Source: a virus. Taken from it: a stretch of DNA of 6,701 bases. The DNA is taken from positions 1 to 6,701 of the IMG/VR virus record IMGVR_UViG_3300029805_000015; one strand, given 5' to 3'. Below, piece after piece: positions 1 to 6,701 of the stretch. The position numbers and the translations under genes are program-made. Position 1 is the stretch's first letter; the number at the start of each line of letters is the position of its first letter. The notes under the pieces are model-generated. The model had not been told where the DNA came from and made no database searches. It worked only from the letters and a program-made list of their open reading frames with translations.

Positions 1-119
1 CAATTTCCAAAACAAACTACAGTACAACCACCATCATCATTGCCAGGGTCTGGATTAGCCGCTGGATTATCTTCACCCCATTCACCAACTTTGCATTCGT
101 TGCCTGTAAGATTATAATC
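1..119. repeat. Terminal direct repeat, left copy (identical to 6583-6701)
   Basis: Compared base by base: caatttccaaaacaaactacag...cctgtaagattataatc is present at both ends. This implies a circular molecule or a circular assembly overlap. Confidence 0.97.
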
Positions 120-725
120 AGTTAAAAATCCAGGTTCAGGGGAATCTACATGTGTATATAAGTCTCTAACAAATTCACAAGCAACACCGTCAATCAAATA
201 ATCACAGACATAATCGAGAGGTTGAGTTTCACCGTATAGCGCTAAAAACGAATCAGGATAAAAAGAAGTTAAATGTGTTTCGTTTGGATTCTGAAATCTA
301 AAGTATTCACAGGGACTAGTACAAACGTCAATACCGTCATCGTCTTCATATTTATAATACGGGTGCGGGCATTCATCTTCTTCAGTATTATCAAAATCAC
401 ATGAGAAATTATTTCTAACTTCATAATTGCCGCGTATCGAAGTTAAACCCCAATTGACATCACCGTCAGCATTTACAGAAGCTGCTGACTGATAAGCGCA
501 AGAAGTAGAATTAGGGTAAGCACCCAATGATCTATACTGATCTGAAAACTCCTGAGGAACCCAAGATCTATATAATGTATTGCATGCATGTTCTGCACTA
601 GTGCAAAGCCATCCTGTATCATGCTGAAATCCACCATAAGTTGTAGTTGCTTTATATTCTGTATTTGCAAATGAATTCTGAGAGAGGAATAATACTATAA
701 TCGAGAAAATGTTAAGTGTGCGCAT
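1..725 (-). CDS. pIII-like minor coat / adsorption protein, 5' (N-terminal) part; the gene continues across the circular junction into 6582->5925 (full length 1,383 nt, 460 aa)
   Basis: ATG at 725-723 on the minus strand. Hand translation gives MRTLNIFSIIVLFLSQNSFA|NTEYKATTTYGGFQHDTGWLCTSAEHACNTLYRSW... This is a signal-peptide-like N-terminus followed by a Cys-rich acidic region. The frame stays open to base 1 and, through the 119-bp overlap, is in phase with track ORF 5925..6548, whose first codon is an internal GTG. It is missing from the ORF track because it runs off the window edge. Confidence 0.78.
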   Translation of the reverse strand, partial: MRTLNIFSIIVLFLSQNSFANTEYKATTTYGGFQHDTGWLCTSAEHACNTLYRSWVPQEFSDQYRSLGAYPNSTSCAYQSAASVNADGDVNWGLTSIRGNYEVRNNFSCDFDNTEEDECPHPYYKYEDDDGIDVCTSPCEYFRFQNPNETHLTSFYPDSFLALYGETQPLDYVCDYLIDGVACEFVRDLYTHVDSPEPGFLTDYNLTGNECKVGEWGEDNPAANPDPGNDDGGCTVVCFGN

Positions 726-779
726 ACAACACCAATTATAAATAATGAGAAATAATATAATTCAGCCATTTGTTTTTCC

Positions 780-799
780 AAAAGGGGGGCGTCCCCCCC
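780..799 (-). terminator. Rho-independent terminator immediately after the major coat gene
   Basis: The minus strand reads AGGGGGGGACGCCCCCCTTTTGG. A 6-7 bp pure G:C stem with a short loop is followed by TTTT, starting 8 nt after the coat stop codon (807-809). Ff phages have a strong terminator in the same position after gene VIII. Confidence 0.7.
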
Positions 800-806
800 T
801 TAGTTA

Positions 807-944
807 TTAACTTCGAATTAAACCAAGAACAATTTTCGTGCTTCTGATTCCAATAAATAATCCTGCTAAAGCTACACCTATCGCAGCCAATGCAGTAAAG
901 ACTGTACTAAAATCCACAGCCGCCAACAGAGTTGTAAAATCCAT
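807..944 (-). CDS. Major coat protein (pVIII-like, 45 aa, apparently no cleaved leader, Pf3-like organisation)
   Basis: Absent from the ORF track, presumably because it is too short. ATG at 944-942 and TAA at 809-807. Translation: MDFTTLLAAVDFSTVFTALAAIGVALAGLFIGIRSTKIVLGLIRS. It has an acidic N-terminus, an Ala/Gly/Val-rich hydrophobic helix and a basic C-terminus (R, K, R). An AAAGG Shine-Dalgarno lies 7 nt upstream. It sits directly before the pIII-like gene. Confidence 0.78.
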   Translation of the reverse strand: MDFTTLLAAVDFSTVFTALAAIGVALAGLFIGIRSTKIVLGLIRS

Positions 945-948
945 ATTA

Positions 949-1179
949 TTACCTTTGTATTAATTTTAAAATGTGAACGAGACCGACTGTAGAAACGTAA
1001 TAAAACGCTACTAAACCCCATCCCGCAGAGAATGCCGCAGTTAAAATTGCCGGGTCTAACTGTGACAGATCAAACGGCTGAACGGTTACATATTCAGTAA
1101 CTGTCCAACTGTCAGAACATGTTGGCGACAGATCTATATTTTCGGAAACAACCCCATCGCACAATAGAATAAAAGGCAT
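949..1179 (-). CDS. Small membrane protein of unknown function (candidate minor coat / pVII-pIX analogue by position)
   Basis: 76-aa ORF. Its C-terminal segment DPAILTAAFSAGWGLVAFYYVSTVGLVHILKLIQR is coat-protein-like: acidic, then transmembrane, then basic. The start overlaps the upstream stop as TAATG at 1177-1181, suggesting translational coupling. It lies between the ssb-like and major coat genes. Confidence 0.6.
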   Translation of the reverse strand: MPFILLCDGVVSENIDLSPTCSDSWTVTEYVTVQPFDLSQLDPAILTAAFSAGWGLVAFYYVSTVGLVHILKLIQR

Positions 1180-1469
1180 TAAGCAGTAGCCATTTTTTTA
1201 ACTGAACCTGCAATAGACGACATTGATACTATGCTGATTGTCTGTTCTTGTTTGTCGTTAACTTCCATATCACCTTCACATTGAACAGTAGAACCGATCA
1301 TTTTTTTATAACGATCATAATCTTGAAAGCCATCCATAAATTTATACTTATTTGTCATTTGGCCTTCACCGCCTTTAACTTTAACTAATAAATATATATT
1401 CACATGCTGCCAGGTTTCATAATCTGTTTTCTTGGTTCCCATCAAAGTGCCGTTCATTGTAATTCGCAT
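1179..1469 (-). CDS. Putative ssDNA-binding protein (gene V / RstB positional analogue)
   Basis: 96-aa ORF with an AAGGA Shine-Dalgarno 8 nt upstream of the ATG at 1469. It is the first gene of the structural block, the position held by ssDNA-binding proteins in inoviruses. The function is inferred from size and position only; I recognise no motif. Confidence 0.5.
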   Translation of the reverse strand: MRITMNGTLMGTKKTDYETWQHVNIYLLVKVKGGEGQMTNKYKFMDGFQDYDRYKKMIGSTVQCEGDMEVNDKQEQTISIVSMSSIAGSVKKMATA

Positions 1470-1501
1470 ATCATTAATCCTTTTGTTGTTGAACTATTTT
1501 G

Positions 1502-1529
1502 AGTTTACATCATAATTATATTTATGCAA
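1502..1529 (-). promoter_or_regulatory. Candidate sigma70 promoter for the ssb-like/coat operon
   Basis: The minus strand reads TTGCAT (1529-1524), a 16-nt spacer, then TAAACT (1507-1502), about 33 nt upstream of the ssb-like ATG. This is hexamer matching by eye only. Confidence 0.3.
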
Positions 1530-1541
1530 CATTGTTACAAC

Positions 1542-1569
1542 GAACAATATTAGAAATTAGATGTTAAAT
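1542..1569 (+). other. Weak dif-like (XerC/XerD) candidate site
   Basis: GAACAATATTA-GAAATT-AGATGTTAAAT compared with E. coli dif GGTGCGCATAA-TGTATA-TTATGTTAAAT. The XerD arm matches 9/11, including ATGTTAAAT. The XerC arm is poor, with only the 3' A/T positions shared. It lies in the divergent intergenic region. Confidence 0.2.
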
Positions 1570-1646
1570 GTCACTGCTATCATAATTAGGAGTTAAATGC
1601 AATAATGAATAATATTTATATTTTGAAGAAAAAAGGAACACCGAAG

Positions 1647-1814
1647 ATGGCTACAATTCGAGTTAAAGAAGACACATACGATAAATGGGAAAAGTTGGCT
1701 ATAAAGAAAACTAACGAGCAGGGTAAAATAGTTGCCGTTGCAAATATCATTAACGAATATCTAGAGAGAGAAGCCGATAGGCTAGTAAAGAAATTTGGTT
1801 TAGATGTCGACTAA
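1647..1814 (+). CDS. Small ribbon-helix-helix-like DNA-binding protein (putative phage repressor/regulator), opposite strand
   Basis: This is track ORF 1605..1814. I prefer the internal ATG at 1647 because AAGGAA lies 8 nt upstream. The product MATIRVKEDTYDKWEKLAIKKTNEQGKIVAVANIINEYLEREADRLVKKFGLDVD has the N-terminal beta-strand (TIRVKEDT) plus two-helix pattern of Arc/CopG/MetJ-type proteins. The alternative start at 1605 has AGGAG 12 nt upstream. Confidence 0.6.
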   Translation: MATIRVKEDTYDKWEKLAIKKTNEQGKIVAVANIINEYLEREADRLVKKFGLDVD

Positions 1815-1925
1815 ATTGGGCTACTTGATCAAGTTACTAATGCACTAACTCCTAATGCTTTTTTCTTATAACATAAACCAAATTAATGTTATCGTAGAAT
1901 ACATGTATTAACGGAGTATGGCTAA

Positions 1926-2078
1926 ATGATAGAGCGAGAAGAAAAGGATTGTCAGAAAACATCTATTAAAATTGAAATAGAAAAACTTGAGGTCCTCGGT
2001 AAAAAGCTAGGAATCAATGCGACTGAAATAATTCACATTATTAAAACTAGAGAATTCCGCGAAGAACCTAGAAAGTAA
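1926..2078 (+). CDS. Second small ribbon-helix-helix-like protein (50 aa), opposite strand
   Basis: Not in the ORF track. GGAG (1913-1916) lies 9 nt before the ATG at 1926, and the stop is TAA at 2076-2078. Translation: MIEREEKDCQKTSIKIEIEKLEVLGKKLGINATEIIHIIKTREFREEPRK. TSIKIEIE is strand-like and is followed by two short helices. Confidence 0.5.
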   Translation: MIEREEKDCQKTSIKIEIEKLEVLGKKLGINATEIIHIIKTREFREEPRK

Positions 2079-2093
2079 AAATTATTAATTGCG

Positions 2094-2159
2094 TTCAAGT
2101 AGTTGTTTATTTCTCAATGGTCGCGCTGCTCGCATTCGAGAAATAAACAACTACTTGAA
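2094..2159. repeat. Long perfect inverted repeat / hairpin (22-bp arms, 22-nt spacer) between convergent genes
   Basis: TTCAAGTAGTTGTTTATTTCTC (2094-2115) is the exact reverse complement of GAGAAATAAACAACTACTTGAA (2138-2159). The GC-rich spacer adds partial pairing (AATG/CATT). No clean T-run follows on either strand. Confidence 0.9.
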
Positions 2160-2167
2160 ATTATAAA

Positions 2168-3472
2168 TCAGGAATAAGATAACCAGTCTGGGTTTTCAAA
2201 TTCATATCGAGATATTTTCTCGTCTGGCATTTTTCCAGAAATTGGAAATTCTAAGGATTTAGGAATACCGTCTCTTGTTATATCATTAATAATATCTTCA
2301 GCGCTTCGACCAATTTCAGTTAACGCATTAATAAGTTTTCCGTACTGACGCTTGCAATGTGAAATCATTGAATCCAATGTTATCTGAGCTTTCTTCTTTT
2401 GTATATTAACTAGTTTAATGCGCTCATCAGAAATAAACTCTAAAGCTTTGCATGAACCCGCTAAGTATTTTCCAGGTTCAGTAAGGGTATCCCACGGTAT
2501 ATAGAAATTAGATGCTTTAAGCTCAAGCTCAACACGAACCCATGCGGAGTTTTCGTCACCTAACTGCTTACCTTTCTCATAAATTCGATAATAACGTGCG
2601 CTCGACCTAGAACCCACATACGCAGTCAAACCCTTGTTATCTACGTCATCATTAAGCCAATCACCAACTTGAGAAAACCCCGGCATACGACCGCCGTTTG
2701 CATTATTGTACAAGCCTTCCTTTCTATCTTCGTTAACTTGACGAACTCGATAAGTAGAACCATCCATATCATCATAAGCGAGATCAACACGACGAAGCGA
2801 AGCGTTGATAAACTTACCCCATGACTTTATCTTATTCCAACCGAAACCTTGAGAATGAATATACTCGCAACCCTCGGCATTAAAATACAATTGAACTGTA
2901 GAATTATTTCCACCCCAAGCTACAAAACCAAGCATTGTACTCAATTGCTCGCCGTTCTCATTCTTCGTGTACATCAATTTTCTAGTATTATGATAAAAAT
3001 TCTTGGCACCCATTGGGTCACCAATTTTTATACCTACCATTTTAGAGAAATCATTTGATATAGAAGAAAGAACATCCTCATCACCGAAAAGATCCGGCAT
3101 GATCCTCATATAATCGTCAATTTTCAAAACCAGCGAACAAGTATCAATAATCGCACAATCATTGTTTGCTGACTCCATTGGTATTAAAGAATCAACAAAA
3201 GAGAAACCAGAAGAAGAACGGACAAGAATACCCCCCAGATTGTTCACGGTTTGACCGTTCCGGGGAGTTAGCCCACGTATTACTAGTGTGGGCTGATCTA
3301 CTTTCGTCCGATGATGTGAAAATTTATGAGGGTCAAAAGTAGATAAAGAAGGGTGTGTAGGAGGTAGCCAAGAGAAAGGGCCATCGAACATAATTGCTTT
3401 AAAATCAGACGGTTCATATAGAACATCGTCAACATTAACAGTCGTATCGTTAGAGTTTATTGATTTAAGCAT
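2168..3472 (-). CDS. Rolling-circle replication initiation protein, Rep_trans / RstA-like
   Basis: Translation contains LRRVDLAYDDMDG and TAYVGSRSSARYYRIYEKGKQLG...WVRVELELK. These resemble the RxDLAxD and Y-x-GSR-x-S-x(3-4)-RIY-[DEN]-K motifs of Rep_trans initiators (pT181 RepC, CTXphi RstA). The start is ambiguous. The track begins at a TTG at 3646, and ATGs occur at 3634 and 3472. I favour 3472 because the upstream 174 nt is AT-rich, carries hairpins and translates poorly. Confidence 0.85.
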   Translation of the reverse strand: MLKSINSNDTTVNVDDVLYEPSDFKAIMFDGPFSWLPPTHPSLSTFDPHKFSHHRTKVDQPTLVIRGLTPRNGQTVNNLGGILVRSSSGFSFVDSLIPMESANNDCAIIDTCSLVLKIDDYMRIMPDLFGDEDVLSSISNDFSKMVGIKIGDPMGAKNFYHNTRKLMYTKNENGEQLSTMLGFVAWGGNNSTVQLYFNAEGCEYIHSQGFGWNKIKSWGKFINASLRRVDLAYDDMDGSTYRVRQVNEDRKEGLYNNANGGRMPGFSQVGDWLNDDVDNKGLTAYVGSRSSARYYRIYEKGKQLGDENSAWVRVELELKASNFYIPWDTLTEPGKYLAGSCKALEFISDERIKLVNIQKKKAQITLDSMISHCKRQYGKLINALTEIGRSAEDIINDITRDGIPKSLEFPISGKMPDEKISRYEFENPDWLSYS

Positions 3473-3902
3473 TTTGAACCCGGCTATTTGCCGAGCTAGA
3501 ATAATAATATATACTAATATACATATATCTGAGCTTCCGTGAAGAGCTTGGCGATCGTTGATCGGGAACCTCAAGGGCTGTTTGCGCAGTTCTTGAGGCT
3601 TTATATTTCCACTGTCAGATTCAATATTCCGCATTGCAGAAATCAAAAAATCTAATCTTGTGTTAACGACGCTACCGACAATGATCGATTAAACAAATAA
3701 CGCCGCAATTTTATTTAAACAGCAGTCAGCTGATTTTACAAGGTAATTGCGTTTGAACCGTAGGCGAATGCTCACTATAGAGATTACCGCTCCCCAGCTT
3801 CTTCCCCCGTCATCGAAGGTTTTTTAAAAGGGTTAGCCATTAGGTAGTGTATTCGTTATACAAATAGTAACTATACTATAATGGTATTCCGTTAATTGAG
3901 AT
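3473..3902. other. Large intergenic region upstream of rep; candidate replication-origin / rep promoter region
   Basis: No convincing ORF. Hairpins at 3552-3564 (CGATC-GTT-GATCG) and 3569-3598 (CCTCAAG...CTTGAGG, extendable to 12 pairs). AT-rich block at 3500-3530. Palindromes TCAGCTGA (3726-3733) and ATCGAT. Pyrimidine tract at 3788-3810. Ff phages have their origin region directly upstream of gene II. Confidence 0.35.
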
Positions 3903-4337
3903 TTAATCAAATATAGTAGTTTGAAGTTTAGCGTCTGATTCAAGCGCTACTAAATACTGTTTATTTAAATACTTATTAATAATTTGGGAATTAGTCAGAC
4001 CTTCAGAATCAGAAATAGCAGAAAGCTTACACCACGCTTCAAAGTCTATATCTATAGACTTTCTCTTACCTTTATCCTTACGGTTTCTACCTGCCCTAAT
4101 TGATGTTTTTAACTTTGACCAATCTTTTGACGTTAAGAATTTTTCACACCATTCGTTAAGCTTTACAGTAGCTCTAAAGTCAACTTTTTTGTATTCTTCT
4201 AAAGCAACGTCGATACATTGACGATTTCTCATATGATTATTGAATGATTTGTAATCATTTGCATTAAATTTATTATCTATCCAACGCCTCACGAAAATCA
4301 AATCAGACTTAACAATTGTGTATTTTTTCTTCGGCAT
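3903..4337 (-). CDS. MatP-like DNA-binding protein (helical N-terminal part plus ribbon-helix-helix C-terminal part)
   Basis: 144-aa ORF with its ATG at 4337. The segment LNEWCEKFLTSKDWSKLKTSIRAGRNRKDKGKRKSIDIDFEAWCKLSAISDSEGLTNSQIINKYL aligns by eye with E. coli MatP [69 protein letters not shown]. Shared positions are W..K, LK.[ST]IRA.R.R, [RK]KSID[IL][DE]F..W..L and G.T.S..I. This is recalled from memory, not from a search. Confidence 0.65.
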   Translation of the reverse strand: MPKKKYTIVKSDLIFVRRWIDNKFNANDYKSFNNHMRNRQCIDVALEEYKKVDFRATVKLNEWCEKFLTSKDWSKLKTSIRAGRNRKDKGKRKSIDIDFEAWCKLSAISDSEGLTNSQIINKYLNKQYLVALESDAKLQTTIFD

Positions 4338-4355
4338 AGTGATTTAGCCCTTTGC

Positions 4356-4486
4356 GTTACCCGGTAACTAGTAAAGCAATAGTACATTACGTTACCCGGT
4401 AATGCAATAGATCTAGATATATTTATATTTTATATTGGGTTACCGGGTAACGAATTCTGGCAAGCTGTAATGTGTTACCGGGTATC
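4356..4486. promoter_or_regulatory. Array of four 13-bp palindromes GTTACC[C/G]GGTAAC (candidate operators of the MatP-like protein)
   Basis: The four copies are 4356-4368 GTTACCCGGTAAC, 4391-4403 GTTACCCGGTAAT, 4439-4451 GTTACCGGGTAAC and 4474-4486 GTTACCGGGTATC. Centre-to-centre spacing is 35, 48 and 35 bp. The central base flips C,C / G,G across an AT-rich core (4407-4436) that contains the palindromes TAGATCTA and ATCTAGAT. The array fills the pI-to-MatP-like intergenic space. Confidence 0.75.
4379..4407 (-). promoter_or_regulatory. Candidate sigma70 promoter for the MatP-like/rep transcription unit, overlapped by palindrome 2
   Basis: The minus strand reads TTGCAT (4407-4402), a 17-nt spacer TACCGGGTAACGTAATG, then TACTAT (4384-4379). 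The spacer is largely the 13-bp palindrome at 4391-4403. An alternative is TTACCC-17 nt-TATAAA further upstream, overlapping palindrome 3. This is hexamer matching by eye only. Confidence 0.35.
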
Positions 4487-4487
4487 A

Positions 4488-5630
4488 CTAATTAATTGCT
4501 TCACTAACCCTATTCATACCCATCGTAACCATGTCCTGGTTACGATCTTTTTTGCAATATGCATAACGAACAGCTTTCTTAACAGTAATCTTAACAAGGC
4601 ACTGGGATATATAAGATATTGAGCCGCCTAGTTTTTTGATCTGACGTGAATTTAAGTCAGTATAGCTAGATCCATATTCAACACTAAATACATAGCTCGG
4701 AGTAGCACCAAAGCTCATATTCGATGAAATGTATATAGAACCTCTCAACAACGGATGAGGATCATTTTTAACAACTTTAACTTTTTTAACCTTGAGCTTT
4801 TTCGCCTCATGCTCCGATCTAACAGATTTAACAGAGTCAGTATCAACCGTAGAAGCACTTTGAGGACCAAGAGAACCACGAGAACTTTTCGCATAAAGAG
4901 AACTTTCACCATTGATAAATTCATCGAAAAAATAGTATCCAACGGGTACTGTAACCAAAACAAATAAAACTAATAAAACAAGAGAACCCTTTAATGCATT
5001 AGCCCTACCATCTGCGCCACTTTCTTTACCTGCGCCTCCGTCACTTTTAGTATGACTTTTATAATATTGAAATATTTTAGGCTTATACTTTCCGGGAATT
5101 TGACGTAAAAGTGCGTGTTTCGGCGGTTTAAGTCCACTAATAGAACCTTGATAGACATCGATCCTAAAAGATTTAGAAAAACCAATGGATGACATTTTTT
5201 TAGATATATATGTAGTAGCAACTAAATCTCTAGCAAATGCACAAACTTGATTTAAACCCAGCGTAACAAAAACTATTTCTGTAGATCTGTTGTCTTTACA
5301 AACGAGATGTCTATGCTCTGCTAAAAACTCTTTATGCTGATCAACCATCGTTGTTGATTTAAGACCCGTAGGCCAAAGCCGCCACATCTCATCGACTATA
5401 AAAATGACACCTTTAGGCAAAATATCAATAAACCAATTTTCATCATCTAGAATGTCTTGAATATCAAAAAGAGTAATATCAGCATGAGGATAATCTCTAA
5501 GTATCACATCTAAATGCAAAGGGATGTTAGTCCAAATTTTTCTATCATCTTTAATAGCGTTAATAATAACGTTTTGTACAACACCGTAACTTTTGCCAGA
5601 ACCTTGCAAACCGCAATACGCTGTAATCAT
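4488..5630 (-). CDS. Zot / pI-family phage assembly NTPase
   Basis: 380 aa. N-terminal Walker A CGLQGSGKSYG, Walker B-like GVIFIVDEMWRLWP, and a single central transmembrane segment SLVLLVLFVLVTVPVGYYFF followed by a periplasmic C-terminal domain. This is the architecture of gene I / Zot proteins. It sits directly after the pVI-like gene with a 3-nt gap. Confidence 0.9.
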   Translation of the reverse strand: MITAYCGLQGSGKSYGVVQNVIINAIKDDRKIWTNIPLHLDVILRDYPHADITLFDIQDILDDENWFIDILPKGVIFIVDEMWRLWPTGLKSTTMVDQHKEFLAEHRHLVCKDNRSTEIVFVTLGLNQVCAFARDLVATTYISKKMSSIGFSKSFRIDVYQGSISGLKPPKHALLRQIPGKYKPKIFQYYKSHTKSDGGAGKESGADGRANALKGSLVLLVLFVLVTVPVGYYFFDEFINGESSLYAKSSRGSLGPQSASTVDTDSVKSVRSEHEAKKLKVKKVKVVKNDPHPLLRGSIYISSNMSFGATPSYVFSVEYGSSYTDLNSRQIKKLGGSISYISQCLVKITVKKAVRYAYCKKDRNQDMVTMGMNRVSEAIN

Positions 5631-5633
5631 AAA

Positions 5634-5921
5634 TTATCCTATTAACGGCAATCGTCTTATTAAAAATCGTAATCCGTAAGCTGAAAAAATAACGGATATA
5701 CCAAAACCTAGTTGAAACATATTAGAAAAATATATCATCGATGACGGAATATTGATAAAAAGTTGAGGCAAACTCATAGCCCAGTCAGGAACAGGTATTA
5801 AATCAAATAGGAATGAGAGCCCTTCTAACATCGATTGATAAAGAAATAGAAATAAACTTTCTAATAGATCTTTAAGCCAGGAAGCCATAGCTGATATTGA
5901 ATTAACTATAAAATCTAACAT
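5634..5921 (-). CDS. pVI-like minor coat protein (hydrophobic, 95 aa)
   Basis: ATG at 5921, 3 nt after the pIII-like stop (5925-5927). TAA at 5634-5636, 3 nt before the pI start. It is very hydrophobic, has a basic C-terminal tail ...GLRFLIRRLPLIG, and sits between pIII and pI as gene VI / ace do in known inoviruses. Confidence 0.6.
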   Translation of the reverse strand: MLDFIVNSISAMASWLKDLLESLFLFLYQSMLEGLSFLFDLIPVPDWAMSLPQLFINIPSSMIYFSNMFQLGFGISVIFSAYGLRFLIRRLPLIG

Positions 5922-5924
5922 TAC

Positions 5925-6701
5925 CTAAGCCCTCAAAATTATTACAATTCCAAAAATAACCCAAATAGCCGACATAGCAGAAGCCATCAAACCTGACATT
6001 GATGTGAAGATCTGACAATGAGCTTGTGTTGTTATAGATGTACCAAAAACTTGAAAATCAATTATTGGACAAGTGCCGCCCGTTGGCCAAGCCTGCGAGG
6101 CTCCTACAGACATTTGATAAATCGGTGCCTGAGTCAATCGATCGTAAAATATTGAATTTGTTTCAGACATCGTATTTGCTGTAAAAATACCAGGCGAGCT
6201 AAAAGACTGATTACCGAAGTCCAAGTCTCCGATACTTGTACCTGAATCTCCTGTGTCTGTTCCAGTGTCTGTTCCAGTGCCAGTACCTGTTCCGCTAGTT
6301 CCAGTTCCAGTTCCAGTTCCGCTATCGCCATTTCCAGTTCCGGAATCTCCACTTCCATCATCCGATCCATCACCCGATCCATCACCTCCATCATCACTTC
6401 CATCTCCACTTCCGTCTCCATTAGCATCAGTGCTAGTGCCAGGGCAACCCGGCGCGGTTGGAATGTAATAACAAATGATAGGAATATCTGGATCATCTTG
6501 TACAGATTCATGTTCAGGATCACTCAATCCATCAAAATCATCTAACACACCTTCCCCGTCAACTTCAGCACAAATGTCAGCGCAATTTCCAAAACAAACT
6601 ACAGTACAACCACCATCATCATTGCCAGGGTCTGGATTAGCCGCTGGATTATCTTCACCCCATTCACCAACTTTGCATTCGTTGCCTGTAAGATTATAAT
6701 C
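5925..6701 (-). CDS. pIII-like minor coat / adsorption protein, 3' (C-terminal) part; 6583-6701 duplicates 1-119
   Basis: The frame is open from the window edge to TAG at 5925-5927. It encodes a Cys-containing region, a long Gly/Asp/Ser/Thr linker (GDGSGDGSDDGGDGSGDGSDDGSGDSGTGNGDSGTGTGTGTSGTGTGTGTDTGTDTGDSGTS), a C-terminal domain and a membrane anchor AMSAIWVIFGIVIILRA. This matches the g3p domain-linker-anchor layout. Confidence 0.82.
   Translation of the reverse strand, partial: DYNLTGNECKVGEWGEDNPAANPDPGNDDGGCTVVCFGNCADICAEVDGEGVLDDFDGLSDPEHESVQDDPDIPIICYYIPTAPGCPGTSTDANGDGSGDGSDDGGDGSGDGSDDGSGDSGTGNGDSGTGTGTGTSGTGTGTGTDTGTDTGDSGTSIGDLDFGNQSFSSPGIFTANTMSETNSIFYDRLTQAPIYQMSVGASQAWPTGGTCPIIDFQVFGTSITTQAHCQIFTSMSGLMASAMSAIWVIFGIVIILRA
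6253..6385. repeat. Short tandem repeats encoding the low-complexity pIII linker
   Basis: GTGTCTGTTCCA x2 (6253-6276), a CCAGTT x3 run (6301-6318, extended by partial copies) and CCGATCCATCAC x2 (6362-6385). All are in frame with the Gly/Asp/Ser/Thr linker. Confidence 0.85.
6583..6701. repeat. Terminal direct repeat, right copy (identical to 1-119)
   Basis: See the left copy. It begins right after ...gtcagcg at 6582. Confidence 0.97.

Follow-up and report, generated by a model that had tools for sequence, protein, structure and literature searches.

What would a protein related to MatP, which is regarded as a chromosome-specific organiser of enterobacteria, Vibrio and their relatives, be doing in a filamentous phage? 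The question is raised by a stretch of viral DNA of 6,701 nucleotides (nt), hereafter the window (positions 1 to 6,701 of IMG/VR virus record IMGVR_UViG_3300029805_000015), which is the complete genome of an inovirus in circularly permuted form, 6,582 nt long when the exact 119-nt overlap of its ends (1-119 = 6583-6701) is counted once. An earlier reading of this DNA, made from the sequence alone, had proposed that an open reading frame (ORF) of 144 amino acids (aa) on the minus strand, at 3903-4337 between pI/Zot and rep, encodes a MatP homologue, and the ORF is found exactly there. Here we describe evidence that its product is a true, distant homologue of MatP by sequence and fold, that it belongs to a separate mobile-element family, and that its gene lies behind four palindromes of the matS type, on which it probably acts as an autorepressor. 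The relation to MatP confirms the earlier observation; the matS-type sites upstream of the phage matP-like gene are the new point.

Sequence comparison connects the protein to MatP along both of its domains. As a single sequence it matches the Pfam model MatP_C (PF17414) above the cut-off (30 bits against 24, E 6.5e-7, residues 91-125) and the MatP N-domain model (PF06303) below it (19.1 against 27 bits, residues 42-86). Searching the PDB with phmmer returned MatP structures (7nyw at E 4e-7, 3vea at 3e-5 and 4d8j at 2e-4) and nothing else of significance, the top match being MatP of Photorhabdus thracensis (7nyw); BLASTP aligns the protein to E. coli MatP with 30% identity across 69 residues. 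The helical domain, sub-threshold when the protein is taken singly, is covered by a profile of 78 family members, which aligns to MatP structures at E 5e-17 over profile positions 17-130, taking in the helical domain and the ribbon-helix-helix (RHH), and 31 of the 78 members match the Pfam N-domain. Motifs that the sequence-only reading had picked out by eye reappear in the HMMER alignments to MatP structures (eWceK against gWidK; GlTnSqiI against GkTlSetI; and the stretches KtsIRAgRnR and RKSIDIDFeaWckL), except that the leading L of its 'LK' is M in MatP, and the likeness in length that it had noted (144 aa against 150 aa in E. coli MatP) is correct. The best conserved stretches are KTSIRAGRNR and RKSIDIDF, which belong to helix alpha4 and strand beta1, the elements that MatP inserts in the major groove to read matS (PMC8669397). 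Relative to MatP, the phage protein has a five-residue deletion in the linker before beta1.

The predicted structure agrees with this assignment and recovers the MatP-type arrangement of a helical bundle plus RHH. An AlphaFold2 model (family alignment as input; predicted local distance difference test score, pLDDT, 89.5) has an N-terminal bundle of helices at residues 10-25, 29-33, 39-51, 57-67 and 70-89, followed by an RHH with a strand at about 92-98 and helices at 99-112 and 116-134, and a short C-terminal helix at 136-142. When this monomer model was compared with the PDB by Foldseek, ranks 1-7 were all MatP chains, with probability 1.0, 138-158 aligned columns and template-modelling (TM) scores of 0.39-0.49; CopG-type RHH proteins appeared only at E > 2, and among the predicted viral structures of BFVD nothing fell below E 0.98. 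Sequence alignments to MatP stop at about residue 126-130. The C-terminal tail, some 14 residues beyond the RHH, is conserved inside the closest subfamily (YLxxLxxDxxLQ) and has no demonstrable similarity to the tail of MatP. The phage gene differs from that of an 89%-identical relative at 24 codons synonymously and at 16 non-synonymously; since none of the latter changes falls in residues 59-90, 92-112 or 119-144 (reading heads, first RHH helix and tail), the DNA-binding part and the C-terminal tail are under constraint.

The DNA in front of the gene holds the second line of evidence. The 150-bp gap between zot and the matP-like gene contains four 13-bp palindromes of the form GTTACCSGGTAAC, all within 131 bp (sites 1 to 4, Table 1), where 0.14 are expected by chance and where 0 of 200 shuffles reached four. 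The matS consensus is GTGACRNYGTCAC, with a layout of five, three and five bases, and the phage palindromes share this 5-3-5 layout. From centre to centre they are spaced by 35, 48 and 35 bp, alternate sites lying 83-84 bp, or about eight helical turns, apart, and the core TACCSGGTA is found nowhere else in the phage genome. Matches to the strict E. coli matS within one mismatch are absent from the window, the notable two-mismatch matches being the GTTAC sites themselves. The pattern GTTACNNNGTAAC, which site 1 matches exactly, is a high-affinity matS variant bound by P. thracensis MatP (Burmann et al. 2021, PMC8669397). In the 89%-identical relative the site cores are kept and the intervening DNA has diverged; the core of site 1 is conserved in L001 and L002.

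These sites coincide with a candidate promoter. A -35/-10 pair that could serve the matP-like gene lies among them (Table 1), and its geometry is echoed in L001 (TTGCGT-17-TATTAT) and in the relative L018 (TTGAAA-16-TATAAT). In the window and in both of these relatives one site occupies the promoter spacer, and the proximal site then lies over the start region.

The arrangement is not peculiar to one phage. In the closest subfamily, every locus with enough upstream sequence has between one and four palindromes in the 150 bp that precede the start codon; upstream DNA in these loci holds 7.0 palindromes per kb, and the rest of their sequence 0.23 per kb. Measured from the ATG, the sites stand at -31, -66, -114 and -149 in the window; at -30, -58 and -97 in L018, which has another 5 bp after the stop codon; at -30, -59, -95 and -136 in L021; at -33, -68 and -136 in L022; at -29 and -58 in L023; at -57 in L019; and at -55 in L024. 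Offsets of about -30 and about -58 thus recur among these six independent relatives. The L018 consensus, GCTACATGGTAGC, is present in four copies against 0.10 expected. While the half-sites vary by lineage (GTTAC against GCTAC), the 5-3-5 architecture is constant, which fits the expectation for cognate protein-operator pairs. At the position of residue 85 of the window protein, in helix alpha4, the relatives P0003 and P0006, with GCTAC half-sites, read R-M-R, and proteins associated with GTTAC read R-N/S/K/L-R. This hints that the residue may read base 2 of the half-site, P0003 and P0006 being sisters and so counting as one event. A further observation concerns the inside of the gene, where the codons for V-T-L-S of the RHH spell a matS-type GTTACATTGTCAC in L018 (644-656, +342) and L021 (3126-3138, +345); this may be an operator or a coincidence of codon choice, and the window gene, with LTNS at this position, is without it.

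Canonical matP genes carry a comparable site. A pattern of GTKAC-N3-GTMAC occurs at exactly -25 of matP in 77 of 80 Enterobacteriaceae species genomes (L026-L105, at about 976-988), against a background of 0.21 per kb, with variation in both the half-sites and the central triplet; in E. coli K-12 (NC_000913.3) an exact GTTACACGGTAAC stands at -25 from the ATG (L025:1961-1973). This suggests that canonical matP may be autoregulated through the -25 site, and our literature search found no paper describing autoregulation of matP. The phage gene and canonical matP both carry such a site in their promoter regions, and an ancestral link between them is likely.

The link does not extend to recent capture. 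The sequence-only reading had supposed that the phage captured or retargeted a host MatP, a view that the comparisons do not support: the protein scores 43.8 bits against the NCBIfam MatP equivalog NF003471 (cut-off 165), and there is no canonical MatP among the 150 proteins nearest to it, of which the best reaches 44 bits against E. coli MatP, so that a recent capture of host matP is rejected. The relatives are carried instead by plasmids, islands and other inoviruses, and the phage protein is best placed in a separate, unnamed and large MatP-like family. An exhaustive HMMER search covering 1.84 billion representatives (clusters at 50% identity) found at least 150 members at E <= 1e-3 and 26 at E <= 1e-10, most of them 120-150 aa long and aligning from residue 1. 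The family is marked by the N-terminus MARxKYxIT, by LNxWCExYL and LKxAIRAxRxR, and by an RHH with TLSxxIE, and the phage protein fits it with the variants PKKKY for ARxKY and LTNS for TLS; W63, W73, R81, R84, A101, L105, T115 and S117 are near-invariant. We know of no described function for any member of this family, and a literature search found no paper on MatP-like proteins encoded by phages or plasmids.

Most of the members seen reside on plasmids, islands or chromosomal contigs rather than in phages. Among their settings are a 125-kb chromosomal-type contig and another contig that encodes an integrase; one member sits in an island that also carries a resolvase, SIR2 and type I restriction-modification genes (L009:953-6802), and on the Oceanisphaera plasmid pA the gene directly follows parA-parB and is itself followed by a BREX system (L015:3188-6390, 6760-11716). 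The defence loci beside some members (BREX; type I restriction-modification/SIR2) possibly reflect chance placement in variable regions. A tblastn search found the family in 748 plasmid records, 708 of them conjugative, and the example examined, pEC12-1b, is an IncC plasmid. Its member, WP_000868820.1, is an unannotated 124-aa 'hypothetical protein' (L014:4869-5243) encoded before rhs, which hhalign aligns to the family profile with a probability of 99.4% (E 2e-21); upstream of it, at 4815-4860, are two inverted 12-bp repeats, GTTACATGTCAC and GTGACATGTAAC.

Beyond its own clade, the phage protein has its two nearest relatives in other filamentous phages, namely P0003 (42% identity) and P0005 (37%); these phages have another Rep family (Phage_CRI) and carry the matP-like gene on the strand opposite to rep. 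The gene thus recurs in at least three inovirus lineages. Relatives beyond the phage's own clade were not found in IMG/VR, tblastn of the protein against 50,697 GenBank phage records gave no match, and a word-index protein search returned the query itself and one 89%-identical relative, or 11 proteins with the family profile. The earlier suggestion of a host from the MatP-containing gammaproteobacterial clade is not borne out either; the family is found on contigs with GC contents of 37-58% as well as on IncC plasmids, whose host range is broad, and nothing here identifies the host.

From the homology, the fold, the four sites and their conservation we infer, with a probability of roughly 0.65, that the phage protein is a MatP-fold autorepressor of an operon formed by its own gene and rep, acting through the four matS-type operators. 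It would dimerise through its RHH and bind the four palindromes. With site 2 in the promoter spacer and site 1 over the start region, bound protein would be expected to block RNA polymerase, giving negative autoregulation. The next gene downstream is rep, on the same strand, and no minus-strand terminator-like site was found between the two, so that rep is probably co-transcribed and the same switch would set the level of Rep and, with it, the copy number of the replicative form and the output of phage. The gap at 3640-3905 has no unusual single-strand structure (z -0.16). The locus has the hallmark of RHH autorepressors, an RHH fold together with repeated palindromes over its own promoter in a layout that is kept in relatives, and of the functions that the sequence-only reading had listed, an early-operon autoregulator is the one that these palindromes favour.

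Several points weigh against this picture. Binding, repression and co-transcription with rep are predictions from sequence and fold, and the promoter was read by eye, matching the consensus at 7 of 12 positions; a strict consensus promoter scan did not report it. In two other inovirus lineages the matP-like gene points away from rep and ends at the side of the phage attachment site (attP), and a separate small regulator sits beside rep (HTH_3 in L021), so that control of rep cannot be its role there. Because the gene lies at the attP end and away from rep in these lineages, the protein may do more than regulate itself. The main repressor module of the phage may also be encoded elsewhere, by the two small plus-strand ORFs at 1605-1814 and 1926-2078, and the site cluster might have a structural role in the viral strand. 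Autoregulation alone, moreover, does not say what the matP-like protein is for.

Other readings of the locus take up that question. The phage protein could bind matS on the host chromosome, or MatP of the host could bind the phage sites, so as to place the replicative form or prophage at Ter, dif or mid-cell, or to alter Ter cohesion in favour of XerCD integration or inheritance, with autoregulation as a secondary matter. Such a hijack of the Ter/dif region or the divisome would fit the high affinity of a real MatP for the site variant found here (PMC8669397) and the closeness of the alpha4 and beta1 elements to those of MatP, and a cluster of four matS-type sites on a phage is notable because E. 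coli and Salmonella prophages are reported to avoid matS (PMC3603311). It would also fit the nearest other inovirus lineage. The prophage in L017, an inovirus with P0003, is bounded by 30-bp dif-like direct repeats, CGTTCACATAATCACAACATTATGCCGAAT (L017:93-122, 7119-7148), and has a second dif-like site, presumably a dif-like attP, at L017:7006-7033, 54 bp after the matP-like gene; it looks like an XerCD-type integrating phage with a matP-like cassette beside attP. Dif-like sites also occur in L018 (790-817 and 903-932), where they accompany the extra palindrome after the stop codon. However, no dif-like site was found in the window at thresholds that found sites in L017, L018 and L021, all of the sites sit on the gene's own promoter instead of being dispersed, the tetramerisation/ZapB region of MatP has no detectable counterpart in the tail, and the family is also found outside phages. 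Taken together, we consider this reading unlikely. A wider form of it, in which mobile circles such as phage replicative forms and IncC-type plasmids carry a MatP/matS cassette of their own to plug into or subvert the host's handling of its chromosome, as an unloading site for MukBEF/SMC (structural maintenance of chromosomes) complexes or as a tether to the Ter/dif/septum zone where XerCD acts, and in which autoregulation is a housekeeping layer shared with canonical matP, is speculative, and we would not expect it to hold.

The four-site array also recalls a centromere, with the RHH protein as its binder (compare ParG, ParR and omega), pairing or tethering replicative forms for inheritance during chronic infection. 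RHH centromere binders generally regulate their own operon and recognise arrays of repeats in front of it, one family member stands directly after parA-parB and others are common on IncC plasmids, and the phasing of alternate sites by about eight turns would suit bridging. A maintenance or partition element is nonetheless quite improbable, given that the ORF list, Pfam and PHROGs disclose no partner partition ATPase in the phage, that inovirus replicative forms are usually multicopy, and that sites at conserved distances from the ATG (-30 and -58) speak for control of a promoter. In single-stranded form the viral (minus) strand at 4338-4490 would fold into one long hairpin (-27.1 kcal/mol, z -5.4, 0/200 shuffles as stable), and Ff phages have their origins and packaging signal in the intergenic region that follows the final morphogenesis gene, so that the cluster might be mainly a packaging signal or minus-strand origin hairpin whose likeness to matS is incidental. 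The z-score carries little weight as independent evidence because repeated palindromes fold in this way automatically; the relative conserves only 9-13-bp cores and no continuous stem; and the same type of site recurs at the same offsets upstream of family members outside the inoviruses, and upstream of canonical matP, all of which makes this highly improbable. The predicted hairpin pairs the two outer sites, 1 and 4, with each other and likewise the two inner ones, 2 and 3, so that the packaged strand would rebuild two duplex matS-type sites. Finally, the sub-threshold N-domain score of the single sequence and the weak PHROGs match, which is to a 'transcriptional repressor' and nothing more, might suggest a generic RHH regulator that resembles MatP in its RHH alone or by chance; a match to generic RHH proteins and to nothing else was the outcome that the sequence-only reading had said would refute its proposal, and the searches did not give it. 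This candidate was rejected as hardly credible on the profile alignment at 17-130, which takes in the helical domain, the restriction of the long Foldseek alignments to MatP chains, and the N-domain matches of family members.

The autorepressor that we favour can be set beside several known systems. With MatP of E. coli, Yersinia pestis and P. thracensis (4D8J, 3VEA/3VEB, 7NYW) it shares its size, the bundle plus RHH with alpha4 and beta1, a presumed target, 13 bp long and palindromic in a 5-3-5 layout, that has the very pattern of the GTTACNNNGTAAC of P. thracensis, and a matS-type site just upstream of its own start codon. It differs in its modest identity and its failure to reach the equivalog cut-off, in being phage-borne, in a C-terminal tetramerisation/ZapB coiled coil that is not detectably conserved, and in its setting: four sites in 131 bp on a 6.6-kb circle between zot and rep, as opposed to about 23 sites over about 800 kb of Ter and the chromosomal neighbourhood ycbZ-matP-ompA of E. 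coli. Cryo-electron microscopy shows MatP in contact with MukE and with the joint of MukB, an interaction by which it displaces MukBEF (PMC8669397). The mobile-element proteins (WP_000868820.1 and that of the Oceanisphaera plasmid) align over their whole length, N-terminus included, and are likewise encoded by small stand-alone genes with palindromes upstream, although they are mostly not from phages and the IncC sites are 12-bp GTTACATGTCAC inverted repeats. Arc, Mnt, CopG and omega read DNA with the beta-strand pair of an RHH, have repeated operators over a promoter and regulate themselves, as proposed here, but are 45-70 aa long, lack a helical-bundle domain that contacts DNA, and give structural matches at E > 2 only. 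In the RstR/ig-2 immunity module of CTXphi, too, a regulator sits between the assembly genes and rep, with several operators at the rep promoter and with protein and operators that vary by lineage; RstR is, however, a helix-turn-helix protein encoded divergently from rstA and has no homology to the phage MatP-like protein.

The window as a whole has a G+C content of 36.7% and carries all of its core genes on the minus strand (Table 1). Megablast of the whole window against GenBank phages gave no match, and no relative of its Rep was found in species genomes. The pIII-like gene has a long linker rich in Gly, Ser, Thr and Asp at about 6250-6470. The two small plus-strand ORFs, opposite in strand to all core genes, lie between rep and the 96-aa ORF; both are also called as genes in relatives L001 and L004-L006 and by eye resemble short strand-helix-helix regulators. 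Neither has a significant family match, and BLASTP detects no similarity between the 69-aa product and the small regulator-like ORF of L017. In two Phage_CRI inoviruses (L017:5966-6478 and L021:2290-2620) a G+C-rich, hairpin-laden stretch (for example ggggcaagcccccgaaccccc) precedes the matP-like cassette; gene calling makes it a 170-aa ORF in L017, but a structured piece of DNA, for instance an origin or a packaging signal, is the likelier interpretation.

Table 1. Coordinates of the matP-like locus and of other features in the 6,701-nt window
Feature	Position	Strand	Sequence	Remarks
Matp-like gene	3903-4337	-		144 aa, ATG start; between Zot/pI and Rep
Shine-Dalgarno-like motif	4348-4352	-	AAGGG	10 nt upstream of ATG
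Site 1	4356-4368		GTTACCCGGTAAC	-31 to -19 from ATG; just downstream of proposed -10, at or near transcription start; exact match to GTTACNNNGTAAC
Proposed promoter of matP-like gene	4379-4407	-	TTGCAT, TACTAT	-35 (4407-4402), 17-bp spacer, -10 (4384-4379); read by eye
Site 2	4391-4403		GTTACCCGGTAAT	Fills 17-bp spacer of proposed -35/-10
A+T-rich stretch	4417-4435			Upstream of proposed promoter
Site 3	4439-4451		GTTACCGGGTAAC	Upstream of A+T-rich stretch
Site 4	4474-4486		GTTACCGGGTATC	Directly after zot stop codon
Zot/pI assembly ATPase	4488-5630	-		Pfam Zot E 8e-22; upstream neighbour of matP-like gene; stop codon abuts site 4
pVI	5634-5921	-		DUF2523
pIII-like gene	5925-6548, continuing across window end	-		460 aa in relative L004
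Major coat protein	807-944	-		45 aa
Small ORF	1605-1814	+		69 aa
Small ORF	1926-2078	+		50 aa
Rep, Rep_trans family	2168-3646	-		Pfam Rep_trans E 2e-29; PHROG 453; alternative start codons exist (e.g. 2168-3634)
96-aa ORF, 76-aa ORF		-		Listed with the core genes

Mobile elements thus carry a large, hitherto undescribed branch of the MatP fold, and in the inoviruses, in three lineages at least, this branch takes the form of a compact cassette in which matS-type operators are followed by the gene. Further roles are possible, among them cross-talk with host MatP and matS, tethering near dif, pairing of circles and SMC unloading. The locus described here offers a testable model of the MatP fold as a promoter switch, and a defined system for finding out if MatP/matS logic serves phages and plasmids in dif-linked integration, in inheritance or in escape from SMC complexes.

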